Shown piece by piece: positions 718 through 55,058 of a stretch of 64,000 bases of DNA. Each line of letters begins with the position of its first letter. Positions within the stretch are counted from its first letter, which is position 1. Both the position numbers and the translations under genes were made by a program. The notes beneath the pieces are model-generated. The model saw only the letters and a list, made by a program, of their open reading frames with translations, made no database searches and was not told the origin of the DNA. The DNA lies in NCBI GenBank assembly GCA_963843575.1, contig CAWJKZ010000025.1, forward strand, positions 96,001 through 160,000, written 5' to 3'. This DNA is from an uncultured Acidobacteriota bacterium. Lineage in GTDB: Bacteria > Acidobacteriota > UBA6911.

Positions 718-1759
718 GGCTTGTGTGCGCCCGCTCCAATACAGCCTCAGCGCGATCCGGGAGCCCGCGCCGCCTCAGGGCCGATTCGGTGGCACGGCGG
801 TTGCCCTCGACCGTGGGCGGCCAATTCCCGGTCGATTCCGCCCGGGGATAGACGGGCGCGGAATATCCCCGGTAGAGTTCCGTCCGCAGGTGGGCGAGCA
901 TCTGGTGCCCGGCGCGGCGCGCCCGCTCAACCCTGAGCGCCTCGACATCGACCGGCCCGACCACGATGCGCTCTCCCGGTCCCGGTTCGGCCTGAGCCAG
1001 TATCCTGCCGTCGAAATCGACGATCATGCTCCCGCCGGGCCAGCTGAACGGAGGGTAGTGTGCGAGCCGGGCTCCCTGGTTCGCTGCCACGACGTAGGCC
1101 ATGTTCTCGAGGGCACGGCAGCGGTTGACGACCGTCCACCAGTCCAGCGGCGCGGCGGTACCCCACGGATCCATGTAAGCGGAAACCCGTATCAGCACCT
1201 CGGCCCCTTTCAGCGCGAGCTGCCGGATGGCTTCGGGGAAGAGCCAGTCGTAGCAGATCGCCGCGCCGAGCAGACCGATCTCGGTCTGAACCACGGGGAA
1301 AGGATCTGCCCCGTATTGCGAGAGGTCGTGAGGGCTGGCGTGCACCTCCCAGGGGACCCAGGGGTGCGTCTTGCGGTACTTCGCCAGGACTCCGCCCGGA
1401 CCGATCAGGCAGGTCGTGTTGAACACGACGCCCGGGAAGGCGGCGTCCGACTCGAGGAAGGTCCCGGTCTGAATGTAGATGCCGTGGTGCCTGGCCCGCT
1501 GCTCGTAGCGTCGCGTGTGCTCGTTAGGAACCGGCACCGCCAGCTTCTCGGCCAACTCCGCGACGGTGGGGTACACCGGCGGCGTGTGCGCAAATTCAGG
1601 GAAAACCACGAGCCGCACCGGGAAAAAAGGCTCATAGCCGAGGACAGCGTGATCGATCATTTCGACCATGCGATCAACTCGAGCCGCAATGTCGGCGCGC
1701 GAGGCCGCACTCGGGAAATCCGTCTGGCAGCAGGCGGCGTAATAGCGAAGCTCGTTCAT
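671..1759 (-). CDS. Carbon-nitrogen hydrolase (nitrilase/amidase) family protein
   Basis: Catalytic triad motifs 'VFPEF', 'YRKTH', 'ICYD'. Start placed at ATG 1759 (MNELRYYAAC). Confidence 0.85.
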   Translation of the reverse strand: MNELRYYAACCQTDFPSAASRADIAARVDRMVEMIDHAVLGYEPFFPVRLVVFPEFAHTPPVYPTVAELAEKLAVPVPNEHTRRYEQRARHHGIYIQTGTFLESDAAFPGVVFNTTCLIGPGGVLAKYRKTHPWVPWEVHASPHDLSQYGADPFPVVQTEIGLLGAAICYDWLFPEAIRQLALKGAEVLIRVSAYMDPWGTAAPLDWWTVVNRCRALENMAYVVAANQGARLAHYPPFSWPGGSMIVDFDGRILAQAEPGPGERIVVGPVDVEALRVERARRAGHQMLAHLRTELYRGYSAPVYPRAESTGNWPPTVEGNRRATESALRRRGLPDRAEAVLERAHTSQNSPRKHRGTRKTHN

Positions 1760-1810
1760 AGGCGACGAGGATATCACACGTGTCATTCTCGCCGACCCAT
1801 CGACGGCCAA

Positions 1811-1917
1811 GTGGGTCCGGGCTTCAGCCCTGACAACGCCTTTAAAACCGTCTCATACCGTGACACATGCACTGCATAGCTACCGCACACAGCGTCCGGG
1901 CTGAAGCCCGGACCCAC
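1811..1917. repeat. REP/REPIN-like inverted repeat doublet
   Basis: Perfect 20-bp arms GTGGGTCCGGGCTTCAGCCC (1811-1830) and GGGCTGAAGCCCGGACCCAC (1898-1917). Each arm is itself a small palindrome preceded by GTGG. Confidence 0.8.
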
Positions 1918-2105
1918 GGAGAGGGGACCCCATTGTCAACGGGTCGGCCCAGGGCGTAAGCTTCAATCGATTAGTCCCAAGACCGCGGCGGCCACCCTCG
2001 GGTGAGTGACCTCCGCGAAGGCAGCACTAAAAAAGAAAACCAAGGCCCACGGGCGGTGCACGCCGTCCGGCGCAGCATCTGTTGTTCGGGCCCAGGGGTC
2101 GGCGC

Positions 2106-4895
2106 ATGAAAACGGACTGGCTTGCCAGGTGGACTGGTTTGTTTCTGATCGTACTTCTGGTGAACACCGCCTACATCGCCGCCTTCGCGTCGCCTACGGT
2201 CTTCTACATGGCGAACGTCGCGCTGCATCTCGGGCTGGGGGCGGCGCTGGCCCTCGCCGGCATCACCCTGCTGGCGCGTCATCCGGATCTTCGGCGTGCG
2301 CTGCGCTTCGCAACCCCGGGATTCGCCGTATCGCTCGCGCTGGGGCTATACCTGGCCTGGGCGGGGAACACCACCGAGAACCGCTGGGTGTTGTGGGGGC
2401 ACATAGCCTCGGCGGCGCTCGGCCTCGCAGGGATGACCCCGTTCGTCTGGCGGTCCGCCTCCCGCGAAGGCTGGCGGCAGTTCAGAACCGCCTTTCAGTA
2501 TTCGGCCATGCTTCTCGTACTCCTCCCGCTCGGCATGACCGCGTATCGGAAGGCGGTCCCCAATCCCGCCGACACCATCCGCAACCCGCTGACCGTGCCT
2601 GTTTCGATGCACGAAGAGGGCGGAGGGCCCGGTTCGCCCTTCTTCCCTTCCTCGGCCAAGACCAACGTGGGTGGAATCATCCCGTCAAACTTCTTCATGG
2701 ACTCCGCGACCTGCGGCGAGTGCCACAAGGACATCTACGCGCAGTGGCAGAGCTCCGCCCACCGCTTCGCCTCCTTCAACAACCAGTTCTACCGGAAGTC
2801 CGTGGAGTACATGCAGGACGTCGTCGGCACGCAGCCGAGCAAGTGGTGCGCCGGGTGCCATGATCACGCCGTGTTCTTCAACGGGCGCTTCGAACGGCCG
2901 ATCAAGGAACAGATCGACACGCCCGAAGCCCACGCCGGCCTGGCCTGCACGTCGTGCCACTCCATCGTTCACGTGGACAGCACGATGGGCAACGGCGGCT
3001 TCACCATCGAGTACCCTCCGCTGCACGAGCTTGCCAACAGCAAGAACAAGTACATCCGGATGATGGACCGGTTCCTCACCTACCTGGACCCGGAGCCGCA
3101 CCGCCGCACCTTCATGAAGCCGTTCATGCGAGGGCCGGACTCGCCCGAGTACTGCGCGTCCTGTCACAAGGTGCACCTCGACGTCCCGGTGAACAGCTAC
3201 CGGTGGTTCCGCGGGTTCAACGACTACGACAACTGGCAGGCCAGCGGGGTATCCGGGCAGGGGGCGCGCTCCTTCTACTACCCGGGGCAGAGCTCGACGT
3301 GCATCGACTGCCACATGCCGCTCGTGAACTCGCGCGATCCGGGCAATCACGGCGGCAAGGTCCATTCGCACCGGTTCCCCGGCGCGAACACGGCGTTGCC
3401 GTTCGTGAACCGGGACGAGGGACAGATGAAGGCCGTGCTCGACTTCCTCCAGTCCGGCTTCATCTCCGTCGACATCTTTGCCGCGACCCCGGTCGAGGAT
3501 CAGCCGGGGCAGATGCAGATGGTGCGCCGCTCGAACCAGACGCCGCAGCCGATGTCCTCCTTCGCGGTCGGAGAAGAGGCCGAAAGCTCGGCCCCGATCA
3601 TGATCCGTGAGGTAGGCAAAGTGGCCGCCCCGGTCGACCGCTCCGCCCTGACACTGGTCCCGGGGAGCACGGTGCGGCTCGACGTCGTGGTCCGCACCCG
3701 AAAGATCGGGCACTTCTTCCCCGGCGGCACAGTGGACGCCTTCGATGTCTGGCTCGAACTGCAGGGGACCGATGCCGCGGGCAAGATCGTGTTCTGGAGC
3801 GGCCAGGCGACGGACGAAGGCCGTGGGCCCGTGGAGCCCGGGGCTCACTTCTATCGTTCGTACCAGCTCGACGGCGAGGGAAACCCGATAAACAAGCGCA
3901 ACGCCTGGCAGGCGCGCAGCGTCCTGTACGTGCGCTTGATCCCTCCGGGGGCCGCCGACGTGGCGCACTACCGGGTGAAGATACCCGAGGACGCCCGCGG
4001 GCCCCTGACCTTCACCGCCCGGTTGAACTACCGCAAGTTTGCACACTACTACACGCAGTTTGCCTATGCCGGGCAGCCGAGGCCGGGCCAGGACCCGTCG
4101 CTGTTGAACCCACGCCACAACAGCCTGGAGTACTCCTTCGAGAAGAGCAACATCCCGGCGAACGTCTCCGGGAAGATCAAGGACCACATCCCCGATCTCC
4201 CGACGACCGTGCTGGCCCAGGCAACGGCCCGGATCGAGCTCGGGCAGGAAACCCGCTGGGCCCCGGTGGCCGGCAAGAAGGATCGCGAGCGCTGGAATGA
4301 CTGGGGGATTGGGCTGCTGTTGCAGGGCGACCTCAAGGGGGCCGAGTATGCGTTCAAGAAAGTCACCGAGGCCGAGCCCGGGTACGCCGACGGCTGGCTG
4401 AACGTCGCGCGGGCCTTGATCCAGGAAGGGGAGACCGACGCCGCAAAGCCGTACCTCCGGAAGGCGCTCGAACTCGATCCCGAACTCGGCCGCATCCATT
4501 TCTTCAAGGCGATGACCGAAAAGGCGGACGGGAACTACGATGCCGCCCTCGCGTCGCTGGCGCTCGTGGAGCGCAAGTACCCGCGCGACCGCGTGGTGCT
4601 CAACCAGACCGCGCGCATCCTGTTCCTGAAGCGCCAGTACGCTGAAGCTCTCCAAGTCCTCGAGAGGGTCTGTGCGGTGGATCCCGAAGACGTGCAGATG
4701 CACTACACGGCCATGCTCTGCTATCGCGGCCTGGGCGACGCCCAGAAAGCCGAGCGCGAGGAGAGGCTGTTCAGGAGGTTCAAGGCCGAGGAATCGTCGC
4801 AGTCGATCACGGCCAGACGCCGTCTGCTCAGCCCGGAGGACAACAACGAGCGGCAGCAGATTCACGATCACGAGGGCACGGCCGGGGGGATGTGA
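2106..4895 (+). CDS. Membrane-anchored pentaheme c-type cytochrome with C-terminal TPR repeats
   Basis: N-terminal TM helices, five CxxCH motifs (CGECH, CAGCH, CTSCH, CASCH, CIDCH), TPR-like C-terminus. Confidence 0.85.
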   Translation: MKTDWLARWTGLFLIVLLVNTAYIAAFASPTVFYMANVALHLGLGAALALAGITLLARHPDLRRALRFATPGFAVSLALGLYLAWAGNTTENRWVLWGHIASAALGLAGMTPFVWRSASREGWRQFRTAFQYSAMLLVLLPLGMTAYRKAVPNPADTIRNPLTVPVSMHEEGGGPGSPFFPSSAKTNVGGIIPSNFFMDSATCGECHKDIYAQWQSSAHRFASFNNQFYRKSVEYMQDVVGTQPSKWCAGCHDHAVFFNGRFERPIKEQIDTPEAHAGLACTSCHSIVHVDSTMGNGGFTIEYPPLHELANSKNKYIRMMDRFLTYLDPEPHRRTFMKPFMRGPDSPEYCASCHKVHLDVPVNSYRWFRGFNDYDNWQASGVSGQGARSFYYPGQSSTCIDCHMPLVNSRDPGNHGGKVHSHRFPGANTALPFVNRDEGQMKAVLDFLQSGFISVDIFAATPVEDQPGQMQMVRRSNQTPQPMSSFAVGEEAESSAPIMIREVGKVAAPVDRSALTLVPGSTVRLDVVVRTRKIGHFFPGGTVDAFDVWLELQGTDAAGKIVFWSGQATDEGRGPVEPGAHFYRSYQLDGEGNPINKRNAWQARSVLYVRLIPPGAADVAHYRVKIPEDARGPLTFTARLNYRKFAHYYTQFAYAGQPRPGQDPSLLNPRHNSLEYSFEKSNIPANVSGKIKDHIPDLPTTVLAQATARIELGQETRWAPVAGKKDRERWNDWGIGLLLQGDLKGAEYAFKKVTEAEPGYADGWLNVARALIQEGETDAAKPYLRKALELDPELGRIHFFKAMTEKADGNYDAALASLALVERKYPRDRVVLNQTARILFLKRQYAEALQVLERVCAVDPEDVQMHYTAMLCYRGLGDAQKAEREERLFRRFKAEESSQSITARRRLLSPEDNNERQQIHDHEGTAGGM

Positions 4896-50058: not shown

Positions 50059-51480
50059 TCAGTGGGCTATCTTGGGCCAGTACCGCTCGTATTGGAAGTT
50101 GGGGGAGTTTTCGGGCGTGTGGCACCTCGGGCAGAACTCCTTCTTCACCGGGCGCCTGACTTGCTGGAGCACGCCGAGACCGGGATGTATTGTCTGCGGG
50201 CTGCGCGCGTGGTCCACTGACTCACCGTGGCAGGCCTCGCATTGCACACTCGCCAGCTTGGGCGTGCGCAGCATGTTGACAAAGCCGCGGTCGGAGCCGA
50301 ATCCCGTCACGTGGCAGGAAACGCAGTCCTGGTTAAACTGGTTTCCGGCGCGCACAAGCGTCTCGATCGCGCGGGCGTGGCGGCTTTTCTGCCAAACCGT
50401 ATAAGCCTTTTCATGGCAAATTTTGCAGGCATCCGCGCCGGCAAAGAGCGAGCGGGCCGTGACCTGAGGACTCTTGCGGGCCTCCTCCTCCTGCAGCCGC
50501 GACAAGTCGCGCCTGGCCTTGTCGACCACAGACACCAGTCCAGGCGCGTCGGGCACCAGCGACGGGAGAAGTATCATCTCGTTTTTCGAGGTCGTGATAC
50601 GTCCGCCACCATCCCAAGCGACCTCAAGAACCCCAAGCCCGATCCCGGAGTGTGCCGATTCCACGACAACAGTGTTGCCTAACCGGGGCAACTCCCGCCC
50701 GTCGCTCACGGAACTGCCGTTTATGATAACGTCCACCGCCGGGAATGCCTGCGCCAGCGCGGTCAGGTCCGGGTCCCGCATGCGCGCCAGAACCACGACC
50801 AGGTCGGCCCGCTTTTCTACCTCGGGCAGGACGCGCTTCAAGGCCGCCGCAGGATCCTGCATGGGAATCTCCCCGGCCGCCGACGCGTCCCCGGCGACAC
50901 CAAGCACCCCGACGCGGATCTCCACCCCACCCGACGCCGGCTGCAGCGCGAACACCGAGTAGGGGACCGTGGGAAACTGCAGCGACGACGTCCCCTGTAG
51001 GGCCGTGGCGATATACCGGCTGCGGAGCTCCGCCGGGATCAGTCCGAGCCCCTGAAGGCGTTCCAGGCGGCGGAGGTCCGGCTCGGTGGTATTGACCGCG
51101 TCCACGCCGAGCGCGTCGAAGGCCTCCAGAACCCAGCGGTTCGATGGATCGTCCAGGTTGTCGGTCTGGCGCAGGGCGTTTCCGGTTTCCACAACGAGCA
51201 CGGGAACATCTTGATGTTTGCGCTTCACGTCCGCTAGAAGCGTGGCCCGCCGGGCCACGCCGCCCATGGCGGGCTGCGTTCAGCCACAGGGGTCGAGGTT
51301 CCCCTTGAGGTCCCCGGCATAGGCGATCACGACCTTGCCGGGACGGCCCGGGTTGTCTCCAGCCGTGCCCGCACCCCCCTTCCAATGACCGTCCGACTGC
51401 GTGAACCGGAGATAGCCCATGAGAGCAGCGAAAGCCAGCGCAATCGCAAGGAATCCGTACACGGCAATTTTCGACTTCAT
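50059..51480 (-). CDS. Putative selenoprotein: UshA/5'-nucleotidase-like domain with CxU motif fused to tetraheme cytochrome c (473 aa, Sec67)
   Basis: ORFs 51280-51480 and 50059-51267 are in frame and separated only by TGA 51282-51280: 'GNLDPCG-U-TQPAMGGVARRA'. N-terminal TM anchor; four CxxCH motifs. Confidence 0.75.
51239..51279 (-). promoter_or_regulatory. Putative bacterial SECIS element
   Basis: GCGTGGCCC-GGC-GGGCCACGC stem-loop (51260-51240). The loop begins with GG, 28 nt after the UGA. Confidence 0.55.
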
Positions 51481-51589
51481 ACCTGCCCCGGAGGAGTTTT
51501 CTGAATCGCGGGATTGTATAACGAACCGGGGGCCGAACCGGAGACTTTTGCGCCGGCACGAGCCCGATTGCCGTCGTCGCGTGAACCGG

Positions 51590-52553
51590 CTACAGGTCGG
51601 AGCCGTAGGCCCAGAGCGCGGGTACGCCCCCGGTATGCCAGAACAGGATCTGCTCGCCCCGGGCGATCACGCCGCGCCGGATCAGGTCGATCATGCCCGC
51701 AGCCGCCCGTCCGGTGTATACCGGGTCGAGCAGGATGCCTTCGGTGCGGGCGAACAAATGAATGGCCTCGCGTTCCGGCTCGCCCACGATGCCGTACCCG
51801 GCCCCGAGATGGTCGGCGTCGACACAGACATCCTGCGGCCGGAAATCGTGAGCCAGGCCCAGCAGGCGGGCGGTCCCCGCGGCAATTTCCACCACCATCC
51901 CCTGCAGCGCCGCCAGCCGGCTCGTCGATGCTGATTCCCAGCACCTGGCCACCGAACCCTGTCACCGCAACCCCCACCATCATGCCGGCGTGAGTTCCGC
52001 CGGAACTGGAAGCAAAGACGACCCGGTCGAACTCGACCGGCGCCTGTGCGGCTAACTCCTCCATCGCCAGGACGTAGCCCACTGCACCGAGAGGCGTCGA
52101 GCCGCCGAGCGGCACCCCGTAGGGCTTGGCACCCGAGGCCCGCTCCTCCTCCAGCACCACCTCCATTACCTCTTCCCGCGACCGGCTTCCCGACCAGCGC
52201 ACGTCGGCGCCCAGCAGCCGGTTCAACAGAAGGTTCCCTGTCTGCTCCCGTGGTGGATCGCCTCGCAGGACCAGGATGCAGCGCATGCCGCCGCGGGCGG
52301 CTGCCGCCGCCGTCTGCCGACAGTGATTGGACTGCGCCGCCCCGACCGTCACCAGCGTGTCCGCGGCCTGCGCAAGCGCGTCGCCGACCAGGAATTCGAG
52401 CTTGCGAGCCTTGTTTCCACCACCCGCCAGGCCGGTCATATCGTCGCGCTTGATGAAAATCCGCGGACCGTCCAGCGCCGACGAGAGATGCGGCAGCGCT
52501 TCAATGGGGGTCGGCAGATGGGCGAGCGCAAATCTCGGAATCGCCAGCTGCAT
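51590..52553 (-). CDS. D-cysteine desulfhydrase / ACC deaminase family PLP enzyme (+1 frameshift at ~51918)
   Basis: 'KRDD...GGNKARKLE', 'QSNHCR', 'SSGGT'. After the shift: 'EGILLDPVYTG', 'FWHTGG'. Confidence 0.88.
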
Positions 52554-52783
52554 GTGCGTCCTCCAGGGGCGCCATCATACTACGGAAGCCCTCTGATAAG
52601 ACGCCAGCCAGAACATAACCGGGAGACGCGTCCCCGCCCGACAAGCTGCGGCAGCACTGTCGGCCAGGGAGGACCACGTCGAAGCCGCCGCAGCCTACTT
52701 GACACGGCTTGCACCAAGAGAGACAATGACTGGTTACCTATAATATTTGACCGATATACGACTATTATGAAGTGGACTTTCAT

Positions 52784-55058
52784 ATGAGTTCGGCCTTGAC
52801 CGAGCTGCAGTTGCCGGCCCGCGGGACCGCCAGGAAGATCGTTCTGGTCGGGAACCCGAACGTGGGCAAATCGGTGATCTTCAGGCTCTTGACCGGATCG
52901 TACGTAATGGTTTCTAACTTCCCGGGAACCACGGTCGAGATTTCGCGCGGGCGGCTTCAGCTGGGGGGCGTCCATTACGAGGTTGTGGACACGCCGGGGA
53001 TTTACAGCTGCGTTCCCCAATCGGAGGACGAGAAGGTCACCTGCGAAATCCTGTTGCGGGAGGCGCCCGACCTTGTGATCCAGGTGGCGGATGCGAAGAA
53101 CCTGCGACGGACGCTCCTCATCACGTCACAGCTGGTCGAGTTCGGTTTCCCGATAGTCCTTGTGTTGAACATGATGGACGAAGCCGAGGAGCGTGGGATC
53201 GCCATCGACGTGAACGGCCTGGCCGAGCTCTTTGCCGCCCCGGTGGTCGAGACCGTGGCGATCTACTCCAGGGGGCGCAAGAAGCTTTTGCAGGCGATAC
53301 AGGAAGCCCGTCGGCCGGTCAATCCGCTCCGGTTGACGGAGCTGCTGCCCAGGACAGGGGGCTCCGGCGGGGGATGGGAGGAGGGCATTCCCGGCCGCAC
53401 TCGCCGCGGAGTGGCTGGGGCTCGACGACCGGAGTTTCACGCAGCAGGTGGAGGCGTCGCTGGGGGAGCCTCTGGTAGGCGGGTTGCGGGAGGCCTGCGT
53501 CGCGCACAGGGCGATGCACCACCGGTCGCTTCCGGCTGAGATAGCGGACACCCGGGGCCGGTTTTTGGACCAGGCGGTCCACCGGCTGCGGTCGCGGCGG
53601 GAAGTTCGGTTTTCGGACGCGTCGGCCGCGCGCTCGCGTCTTTGGCTGGGACTGCTGGTAGCCGGCCTGGTGCTGTTCGGCTGGAACGAGGTGGGCGGCC
53701 TGTTCGGCGCGTGGACGCCGTTCGGCGCCGCATACGGGAGCGCGGCGGCCGCTCTCGACCGCCTGCCCGGTCCGGCCTTCCTGCGTGAGCTCCTGGTAGG
53801 AGATCCGGCTGCGAGCCGCTACCGTTACGGACTCATCCCGGAGTTGATACACCTGCTCATGTTCGTCCTCCCGGTGGTCGTGCCGTTTGGGGTTCTGCTG
53901 GCCCGCGACCGCAGCTTCGCCCATGAAATCGGGATCCTCACCCGGCGACCGGCGACCGGGATCCCGCTCCTGATGGTCGTGCTGGTCTTGGTGTTCGAGT
54001 TCGTCGGGTACACCGGGGCGCAAGCGCTCGTGGGGCTGCTGGAAAAGACGCTATTCGGCAACTATCTCGTCCCCGCGCTCCGGGAGGTGGCGCCCCGGGG
54101 TTTTGTGGGGGATCTCCTGTTAGGGCGGTATGGCGTGGTGTCGATGGGGCTGACGTACGCGCTGGCCATCGTGCTGCCGGTTGTCGCGACCTTTTTTATC
54201 GCCTTCGGGCTGCTCGAGGACAGCGGTTATCTGCCCCGCCTCTCCATCCTGTCGGACCGGATCATGCGTTCGATGGGACTTAACGGGAAGGCGACGCTTC
54301 CGATGGTGCTGGGCCTGGGCTGCTGCACCATGGCGACGATGACGACCCGGATCCTGAACTCGCCCAAGGAGCGTCTGATCGCGACGCTCCTGCTTGCGCT
54401 CGGCATCCCATGCTCGGCACAGCTCGGCGTGATCCTCGGGATGTCGGCCGCGTTCTCGTCCAAGGCTACGCTCGTGGTCGTCGGGGTGGTCTTGTCCCAG
54501 CTCTTCCTGGTTGGCTTTCTGGCGTCGCGCCTCGTGCGCGGCAAGTGCAGCGAGTTTATCTTCGAGATCCCGCCGATCCGCGTGCCGCAGTTGCGGAACG
54601 TGGTGCTGAAGACAGGCCACAGGATCCGCTGGTATCTCCAGGAGGCGGTCCCGCTTTTCATCTATGGCACGCTGGCGCTGTTCGTCCTCGACAGGGTTCG
54701 TGTGCGGGGAAGCAGCCTCTTGATTTGGATTCAAAAGGCGCTGGAGCCGGTGATCAGCGGTATCCTGCACCTGCCGCCCGAGGCTGCGGGCGTGTTCGTC
54801 CTGGGATTTCTCCGGAGGGATTACGGAGCCGCCGGGTTGTTCGACATGTCGGCGAAGGGGCTCCTGTCGGGCCAGCAGGCGGTGGTCAGCCTTATCGTAA
54901 TCACCTTGTTCGTCCCCTGCCTTGCGAGCTTTCTGGTTATCGTCAAAGAACACGGCCCTAAACGTGCCTTGGCGATCACGGGCTTCATCGTTCCATTTGC
55001 GATTGGCGTCGGCGGGGTCGTGAGCTGGATCCTGAGGACGTTCAACGTGCAGTTCTGA
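52784..55058 (+). CDS. feoB: Ferrous iron transporter B (frameshift at ~53345-53390)
   Basis: G-domain 'GNPNVGKS', 'NFPGTTV', 'DTPG', 'NMMD'. Membrane domain 'LEDSGYLPR', 'PCSAQ', 'LFVPCLA'. Confidence 0.9.

Follow-up and report, generated by a model that had tools for sequence, protein, structure and literature searches.

We have studied a gene in a 64,000-nucleotide stretch of DNA, called here the window, from an uncultured Acidobacteriota bacterium (GenBank assembly GCA_963843575.1, contig CAWJKZ010000025.1, positions 96,001–160,000 of the forward strand). All positions are counted from the first letter of the window. The gene lies on the minus strand in positions 50059–51480 and has one in-frame TGA in its coding region. 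Very probably it is a single gene for a selenoprotein of 473 residues, in which a hairpin inside the gene directs the reading of UGA as selenocysteine (Sec). Its product would be a divergent member of the NCBIfam family NF041198: a redox protein with a Cys-x-Sec pair which is fed by hemes. The following features are found in it:

50059–51480, minus strand: complete selenoprotein gene, 473 codons and the terminator TGA (50061–50059), in one frame which has a lone internal TGA
51280–51282, minus strand: Sec codon UGA, which gives residue U67 of P64-C65-G66-U67, in a column conserved in orthologues
51239–51261, minus strand: hairpin of the Sec insertion sequence (SECIS) type, with a 10-bp stem and the apical loop GGC at 51251–51249, from its energy, the bacterial SECIS (bSECIS) criteria, recurrence and covariation
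51397–51480, minus strand: N-terminal signal-anchor/export helix, residues 1–28, from hydropathy and an AlphaFold2 helix at 2–28
50473–51339, minus strand: degenerate 5'-nucleotidase/UshA-like metallophosphoesterase N-domain and long linker helix, residues 48–336, from Foldseek and profile comparisons
50062–50472, minus strand: c554-like tetraheme cytochrome c domain, residues 337–473, from Pfam, matches in the PDB and CxxCH sites

The internal TGA codon

The minus-strand frame runs from the ATG at 51480 to the terminator with exactly one internal stop, TGA 51282–51280, in the context GDLKGNLDPCG-TGA-TQPAMGGVARRA; with longer flanks it is ...AGDLKGNLDPCG-TGA-TQPAMGGVARRAT.... A previous inspection of the window by a model, which we call the sequence-only reading, had noticed two open reading frames (ORFs) in the same frame interrupted solely by this TGA, and the frame reads in this way: genetic code table 11 gives one ORF of 66 amino acids (51280–51480) and another of 402 (50059–51267). 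The read-through product has 473 residues, and orthologues cover them from end to end. The loop is PCGUTQPAMGGVARR, which has the P-C-G-U/C followed by GG.AR of the NF041198 loop.

We searched for the protein in 61 genomes, that of the window and 60 relatives; 46 of them have a match. There are 25 near full-length rows: 23 have exactly one TGA, two have none. One of the latter (G037:C218) is left out of the 24 rows for which the locus was extracted. In 23 of these 24 orthologues, the window included, the TGA is found in the same C-G-U column; they include G001, a genome of the same genus with 80% identity. The sole exception is L034, from genome G007, which has Cys (PCPC). G007 still has an intact selA, so loss of the Sec system does not account for the change to Cys in L034. 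All nine full-length database homologues which we fetched (six with E below 1e-100 and three more distant) also carry Cys at the Sec column. A wider scan, with one genome per species and an alignment of the 11 closest sequences as query, gave 80 loci in Acidobacteriota, Krumholzibacteriota, Fibrobacterota, Thermodesulfobacteriota, Nitrospirota and other groups: by their pattern TGA is present in 51 and Cys in 15, while 14 are unclassified. In our alignment of 28 sequences (A1) the invariant positions are C65, U/C67, G73, G74, G100, the four CxxCH motifs, H368, H424 and H473.

The sequence-only reading had stated that UshA-like proteins exist as Cys/Sec pairs and had proposed to align homologues at the TGA column. 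The alignment agrees with it: both forms are present, with a hairpin that recurs. Its caveat that a TGC could have been miscalled as TGA is not borne out, as the same-genus genome G001 also has TGA. Since both the TGA and the hairpin recur across orthologues, they go beyond chance; on comparative grounds the TGA is shown to be real, not a miscall, and is very probably decoded as selenocysteine.

A search of a protein collection with the window protein gave 67 matches, 32 of them with E below 1e-100. Six of these 32 are full-length; the other 26 span 57–85% of the query. We fetched 13 partial homologues of about 400 amino acids and ten of them start with MGG.ARRA, six codons past the TGA, among them the public gene call for the window itself (P0002, 402 amino acids). 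As these ten calls begin just past the TGA, we conclude that public gene calls truncate the Sec forms, as had been foreseen for automated pipelines. With the truncation, both the export signal and the catalytic loop are missing from the calls: here we have a clear example of a selenoprotein clipped by ordinary gene calling. Among public sequencing runs the share of the sampled words did not exceed 0.15 in any, and none bridged the TGA codon. Among run contigs at 85% likeness only one, of 155 nt, touched positions 51269–51332, with 8 differences in 64 letters and 11 letters past the codon.

The hairpin downstream of the TGA

The hairpin is located inside the codons for G-G-V-A-R-R-A-T and its loop starts 28 nt past the A of the UGA. 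It has an energy of -19.6 kcal/mol (z -3.37) and none of 200 shuffled sequences is as stable. A wider stretch of 76 nt is unremarkable (z -1.27, with 21 of 200 shuffles as good). The bSECIS model, as it appears in excerpts of PMC13188914, has a loop of 3–9 nt with G in its two leading positions, a stem of 4–16 bp, a distance of 16–37 nt from UGA to loop and a minimum free energy (MFE) not above -7.5 kcal/mol. The hairpin of the window lies within all four limits, with its GGC triloop, its 10 bp, its 28 nt and its -19.6 kcal/mol. The sequence-only reading was right in its fit to the bacterial SECIS model, in the loop and in the spacing; the stem, which it gave as 9 bp, has in fact 10 bp. When the region was scanned with Rfam, no family reached its gathering score; the best one, a serC leader with 24.1 bits against 35, is taken as a chance match.

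Sec and Cys genes can be compared with a position-specific test, for which a hairpin is a stem of at least 6 bp with a G-first loop that starts 20–32 nt past the U of the UGA. In pooled, de-duplicated genes it is found in 66 of 71 Sec genes and in 2 of 16 Cys genes (Fisher p 2e-10, calculated on kin which are not independent). The codons for G-(L/V)-A-R-R-A make up the stem, whose Ala-Arg pair is coded GCC-CGG in 35 of 47 Sec genes, against 1 of 11 Cys genes. In the Cys orthologue L034 the ARRA residues are identical and the codons disrupt the stem.

Covariation was studied in 50 sequences in the codon register of the window, which were not chosen for having a hairpin. In the 10-bp helix 81.2% of the cells are paired, compared with 69.2% in shuffled data and 34–52% when the partner is slid. 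Cells changed on both sides number 55, against 20.3 ± 3.2 after shuffling (none of 500 shuffles reaches 55) and 10–23 after sliding. In these aligned sequences the hairpin is shown to covary, with compensatory changes.

The position of the loop varies in the family. In the genus g2 a loop GGN is found at +24 in 17 of 17 sequences, while in the window it is at +31. Thirteen Sec genes in the codon register of the window (L078, L097, L102, L114, L115, L118, L124, L132, L134, L139, L141, L142 and L036) have an alternative hairpin nearer to the UGA; its loop, found at +20 to +22, is GGUCUG, GUCU or similar, not the GGN triloop at +31. As these loci use the nearer hairpin in place of the triloop, there are two SECIS solutions in one family. 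Two Cys-form genes, L082 and L127, retain a 9-bp hairpin at the SECIS position, with the loop GCA; they may be recent switches from Sec to Cys.

Domains of the protein and machinery of the genome

The protein has four parts: an export helix, a 5'-nucleotidase N-domain without its metal ligands, a linker helix and a c554-like tetraheme domain. An AlphaFold2 model built from the alignment of 28 sequences has a mean predicted local distance difference test (pLDDT) of 87.4 and a predicted template-modelling score (pTM) of 0.79. It shows a helix in residues 2–28, a disordered linker in 29–43, an alpha/beta domain, a long helix in 313–336 and a helical C-terminal domain. Residues 3–25, approximately, are the only strongly hydrophobic stretch (Kyte-Doolittle mean over 19 residues 2.08, with its peak at 5–23); the next-best one beyond the N-terminus scores 1.39. 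For this reason the export or anchor signal is confined to the piece upstream of the TGA, just as the sequence-only reading had it.

A Foldseek search of the PDB with the model finds cobra venom 5'-nucleotidase, CD73 and E. coli UshA (E 8e-19 to 2e-16, probability 1.00). The family profile compared with the PDB gives the 5'-nucleotidase N-domain with E 1.2e-29 (query 35–320) and SoxB with E 5e-13 (query 56–303). In the window protein Pfam detects the cytochrome only, with no match to Metallophos at E<=1. The fold is thus the UshA-like one proposed earlier, with its metal ligands lost. In the profile alignment to solved 5'-nucleotidases and in alignment A1, the DxH motif has become D57-L-K59, GD is G100-N101 and GNHE is T132-E133-P134-D135, while the two later His ligands are R233 and S256 (N-G-S256). 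The first two changes had already been recognized; the third had been read as TTEP, one residue off. The dimetal and catalytic motifs of catalytic 5'-nucleotidases (DxH, GD, GNH(E/D), GH, GGH) are not present, and because of this loss an active phosphoesterase is rejected. The g2 clade retains the Asp of GD and both later His (DxGD, THQ, GGHD). There is no C-terminal nucleotide-binding domain: the PDB profile match stops at query 320 and the cytochrome follows.

The C-terminal domain has the four CxxCH motifs which the sequence-only reading had listed, CKICH (352), CVSCH (386), CEACH (414) and CPRCH (450), and it is a c554-like tetraheme domain. It belongs to Pfam Cytochrome_C554 (PF13435) with 65 bits, above the gathering score of 20.8 (E 1.2e-17). 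The PDB structure of c554, 1bvb, is matched with E 3e-20 by profile (query 328–428) and 3.3e-10 by single sequence; 6i5b, which is OcwA according to the search listing, has a profile E of 4e-24 with its best stretch in query 330–431. In the 28 sequences the invariant His outside the CxxCH motifs are H368, H424 and H473, i.e. three distal histidines for four hemes. Relatives in g2 have stand-alone cytochromes (for example G024:C10:995-1339 and G030:C70:14294-14638) in frames mostly of 153–158 amino acids, with a few up to 271. These cytochromes have 31–43% identity to the tetraheme domain, and the same genomes also carry the fused selenoprotein.

The window genome, in 27 contigs, has a completeness of 88%. 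Its selB scores 373 bits (cut-off 242) and its tRNA-Sec 74.6 bits; ARAGORN calls a SeC tRNA with anticodon tca. Genes for cytochrome c assembly are also present. The same genome has a second PCG-U gene on contig C19 (G000:C19, L154, about 1655–2690, plus strand), with the loop ...GPCG-TGA-PINPMGGFARR.... This paralogue has a signal peptide and the same nucleotidase-like domain, without the cytochrome domain, and has a frame shift about 80 codons in.

Proposed mechanism and comparison with known systems

In the mechanism which we propose, the UGA at 51282–51280 would be read as Sec, directed by the hairpin downstream in the gene. The protein would be exported unfolded and the four hemes attached in the periplasm, while the membrane tether would be kept. 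The invariant Cys65-Gly-Sec67 loop immediately follows what was once the first metal motif and would lie in the cleft of the old active site, where no phosphoesterase or other hydrolytic chemistry would take place. The heme chain would carry electrons between the respiratory chain and the Cys-x-Sec pair, and the pair would cycle between selenol/thiol and selenylsulfide. The anatomy of the protein points to a non-hydrolytic periplasmic redox role. By analogy with the selenoenzyme MccSep, compared below, we tentatively suggest that the pair might reduce or oxidise a small chalcogen substrate: polysulfide, thiosulfate, tetrathionate or selenite. More doubtful is a broader proposal, in which a dead phosphoesterase pocket would have been rebuilt as a selenium site, where Cys65-x-Sec67 would work with the heme that has no invariant distal His. 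The protein would then be a second independent class of multiheme selenoenzyme after MccSep, for the periplasmic turnover of polysulfide, thiosulfate or selenite. Such a class would have a wide distribution in Acidobacteriota, Krumholzibacteriota, Fibrobacterota and Thermodesulfobacteriota, and gene calls stopped at TGA would largely overlook it.

Several results weigh against a Sec-decoded member of NF041198 with this role. The window protein matches the family model (UshA-like (seleno)protein, UshA_like_PCGU, 519 positions) with E 1.2e-71 and 241.9 bits, a score which remains below the curated cut-off of 275. The counts of TGA and Cys come from kin and are not statistically independent. The MFE z-scores of the downstream fold separate Sec from Cys genes only weakly (means -0.80 vs -0.43, Mann-Whitney p 0.095): the separation is seen with the position-specific hairpin test, not with whole-region folding. 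No conserved partner gene was found in 14 loci with 8-kb flanks, where synteny is only housekeeping or lineage-specific, nor in 80 loci with 1.5-kb flanks. Finally, of the selA, selB, selC and selD genes that the sequence-only reading wanted searched, selB and the tRNA-Sec are clear, but selD comes as two pieces and contains an internal TGA (G000:C13:704799-705723), and selA is broken up over several frames into at least five pieces, of which none is above the cut-off (G000:C8:2469-3523). Among the relatives, G003 and G007 have a whole selA gene, while in G001 and G008 it is fragmented too. We infer that the selA and selD breaks are assembly indels, because other genes of the window are also split between frames. 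As selD has an internal TGA, SelD itself may be a selenoprotein here.

An assembly error, with TGA in place of the TGC or TGT of an ordinary Cys-x-Cys protein, is hardly conceivable. The assembly is error-prone, with selA in several frames, selD split and the gene for a pyridoxal phosphate (PLP) enzyme over two frames; Cys forms of the family do exist and the codon was not bridged by any public run. However, the errors observed are frame shifts and not substitutions, TGA is in the same column in G001 and in 21 further related genomes, and both the hairpin and the GCC-CGG codons, mostly missing from the Cys forms, are present here. It is also very improbable that the TGA is a terminator, which would leave a membrane peptide of 66 residues and a separate cytochrome of 402 residues starting at Met72. 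These are exactly the ORFs that table 11 yields, and gene callers report the 402-residue form for the window and its relatives; yet this piece has no export signal and has four CxxCH motifs, which require heme attachment in the periplasm. Conservation is continuous across the TGA, the Cys forms are uninterrupted proteins and the hairpin covaries.

The Cys-x-Sec pair could act on protein thiols or disulfides, or on another periplasmic macromolecule, instead of inorganic sulfur or selenium, which we think rather unlikely. The gene is found among housekeeping genes and not in respiratory operons, and bacterial selenoproteins with Cys-Sec motifs are mostly thiol oxidoreductase-like, as stated in excerpts of PMC2398784. 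On the other hand Foldseek finds no thioredoxin-like fold, and a wire of four hemes is what respiratory or small-molecule redox enzymes typically have. Quite improbable, in our view, is that Cys65 and Sec67 ligate a metal or cofactor in the former dimetal pocket, or one heme iron, with no free selenylsulfide couple. The position of the loop immediately after the former first metal motif would suit such a role, as would the Asp of GD and the two later His kept in the core clade g2; the window clade, on the contrary, has none of these remaining ligands (GN, R233, NGS). Since three invariant distal His serve four hemes, one of the latter may stay open or take its ligand from elsewhere. Cytochrome c554 has a five-coordinate heme, not known to have a ligand of the Cys or Sec type, which agrees with the count of three His and speaks against ligation by the pair. 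In favour of ligation, MccSep has a Cys-ligated heme beside its Sec, according to excerpts of PMC13510729. A heme-fed redox couple of Cys65 and Sec67, decoded from the internal UGA, remains our preferred reading.

The neighbours of the gene differ among groups. The window has a carboxyl transferase, a PD40 protein, a PLP enzyme and a histidine kinase near it; the genus g2 has an electron transfer flavoprotein (ETF), PlsX, YceD and a tetratricopeptide repeat (TPR) protein; other phyla, among the 80 loci, have LptD-like, HU, exonuclease and DciA proteins. The PLP-dependent enzyme upstream (51477–52553, minus strand) is split in two frames, an ORF of 358 amino acids and another of 120 (51590–51952, Pfam PALP), which looks like an assembly indel and not a real break. 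In positions 52772–55058, plus strand, there are overlapping ORFs of 255 and 536 amino acids, by eye the GTPase and membrane parts of a putative frame-shifted ferrous-iron transporter.

The kind of protein is already known, as the match to NF041198 and the published listings demonstrate. The Global Ocean Sampling (GOS) selenoproteome of 2008 has an entry 'UshA-like, COG0737, CxU' with 76 Sec sequences and 92 Cys homologues (excerpts of PMC2398784), and the UshA-like CxU selenoprotein also appears in reviews of 2022 and 2026 (excerpts of PMC9312934 and PMC13188914). The sequence-only reading spoke of a hidden selenoprotein: a selenoprotein it is, but not a hidden new type, since the family is curated and has been catalogued since 2008. 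The gene is a divergent branch of that family, not a new kind of system. No published function for NF041198 was found in the literature searched, supplements excluded. The family is spread over many anaerobic and soil phyla, and MccSep as a respiratory polysulfide reductase (excerpts of PMC13510729) offers a testable analogy for it; if the analogy is true, soils and sediments would commonly harbour an unrecognised periplasmic redox activity on sulfur or selenium.

With NF041198 the window protein shares a signal, the 5'-nucleotidase-like domain, the PCG-U/C loop followed by GG.AR, the c554-like tetraheme C-terminus and the same Sec column. The model is matched in two stretches over its full architecture, and residues 296–465 align to its positions 348–519. 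Ten family proteins were scored and four pass the cut-off (L035, L038, L046 and L054). The window clade has 222–242 bits, L035 has 277.8 and the g2 clade 321–335. Because the window clade scores under the cut-off, family-aware annotation may also miss it. The window protein has 23–28% identity to the g2 clade and lacks the Asp of GD and both later His, all kept in g2. It also differs from the family in its N-terminus, where a long helix takes the place of a short signal which looks cleavable. UshA-like (seleno)protein family 2 (NF049981) has a related N-terminal Sec-loop region (E 1.8e-12, 47.2 bits, cut-off 140). Only residues 51–141 of the window protein match its model, which has 262 positions and no cytochrome domain; the cytochrome-less PCGU paralogue on contig C19 is set beside this family.

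The 5'-nucleotidases (E. coli UshA 1ush/2ush, human CD73 and the snake-venom enzyme) have the same N-domain fold, the long interdomain helix and the GG.ARRAT helix start in common with the window protein, at 13–19% identity. They differ in that the window protein has replaced the metal motifs and has a cytochrome instead of the nucleotide-binding C-domain. SoxB thiosulfohydrolase (2wdc/4uwq) is a distant homologue with the same 5'-nucleotidase fold, a periplasmic enzyme for sulfur compounds. Membership in SoxB is rejected (TIGR04486 E 1.5e-5, 23.5 bits against a cut-off of 550). As a dimanganese hydrolase, SoxB is not known to have hemes or Sec. With cytochrome c554 of Nitrosomonas (1bvb) and the c554-like modules of OcwA (6i5b) the window protein shares, over the first three hemes, the CxxCH spacing and the W..S.HA.A..L motif; c554 is a free electron carrier, whereas in the window it has become the C-terminal domain of a larger selenoprotein. 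As for MccSep and ExtKL (NF040886), membership is also rejected, with 16.5 bits against 250; the structure 9wt8 is matched with E 0.01 over one heme motif only, and beyond this motif MccSep is no homologue of the window protein. MccSep of Geobacter sulfurreducens is a pentaheme selenoenzyme which reduces polysulfide and, less efficiently, selenite (excerpts of PMC13510729). As far as those excerpts describe it, MccSep (PDB 9wt8) resembles the mechanism proposed here, since a periplasmic multiheme chain feeds a catalytic Sec which acts with Cys; its Sec is inside the cytochrome fold, beside a Cys-ligated heme, whereas in the window protein Sec is found in a separate nucleotidase-like domain.

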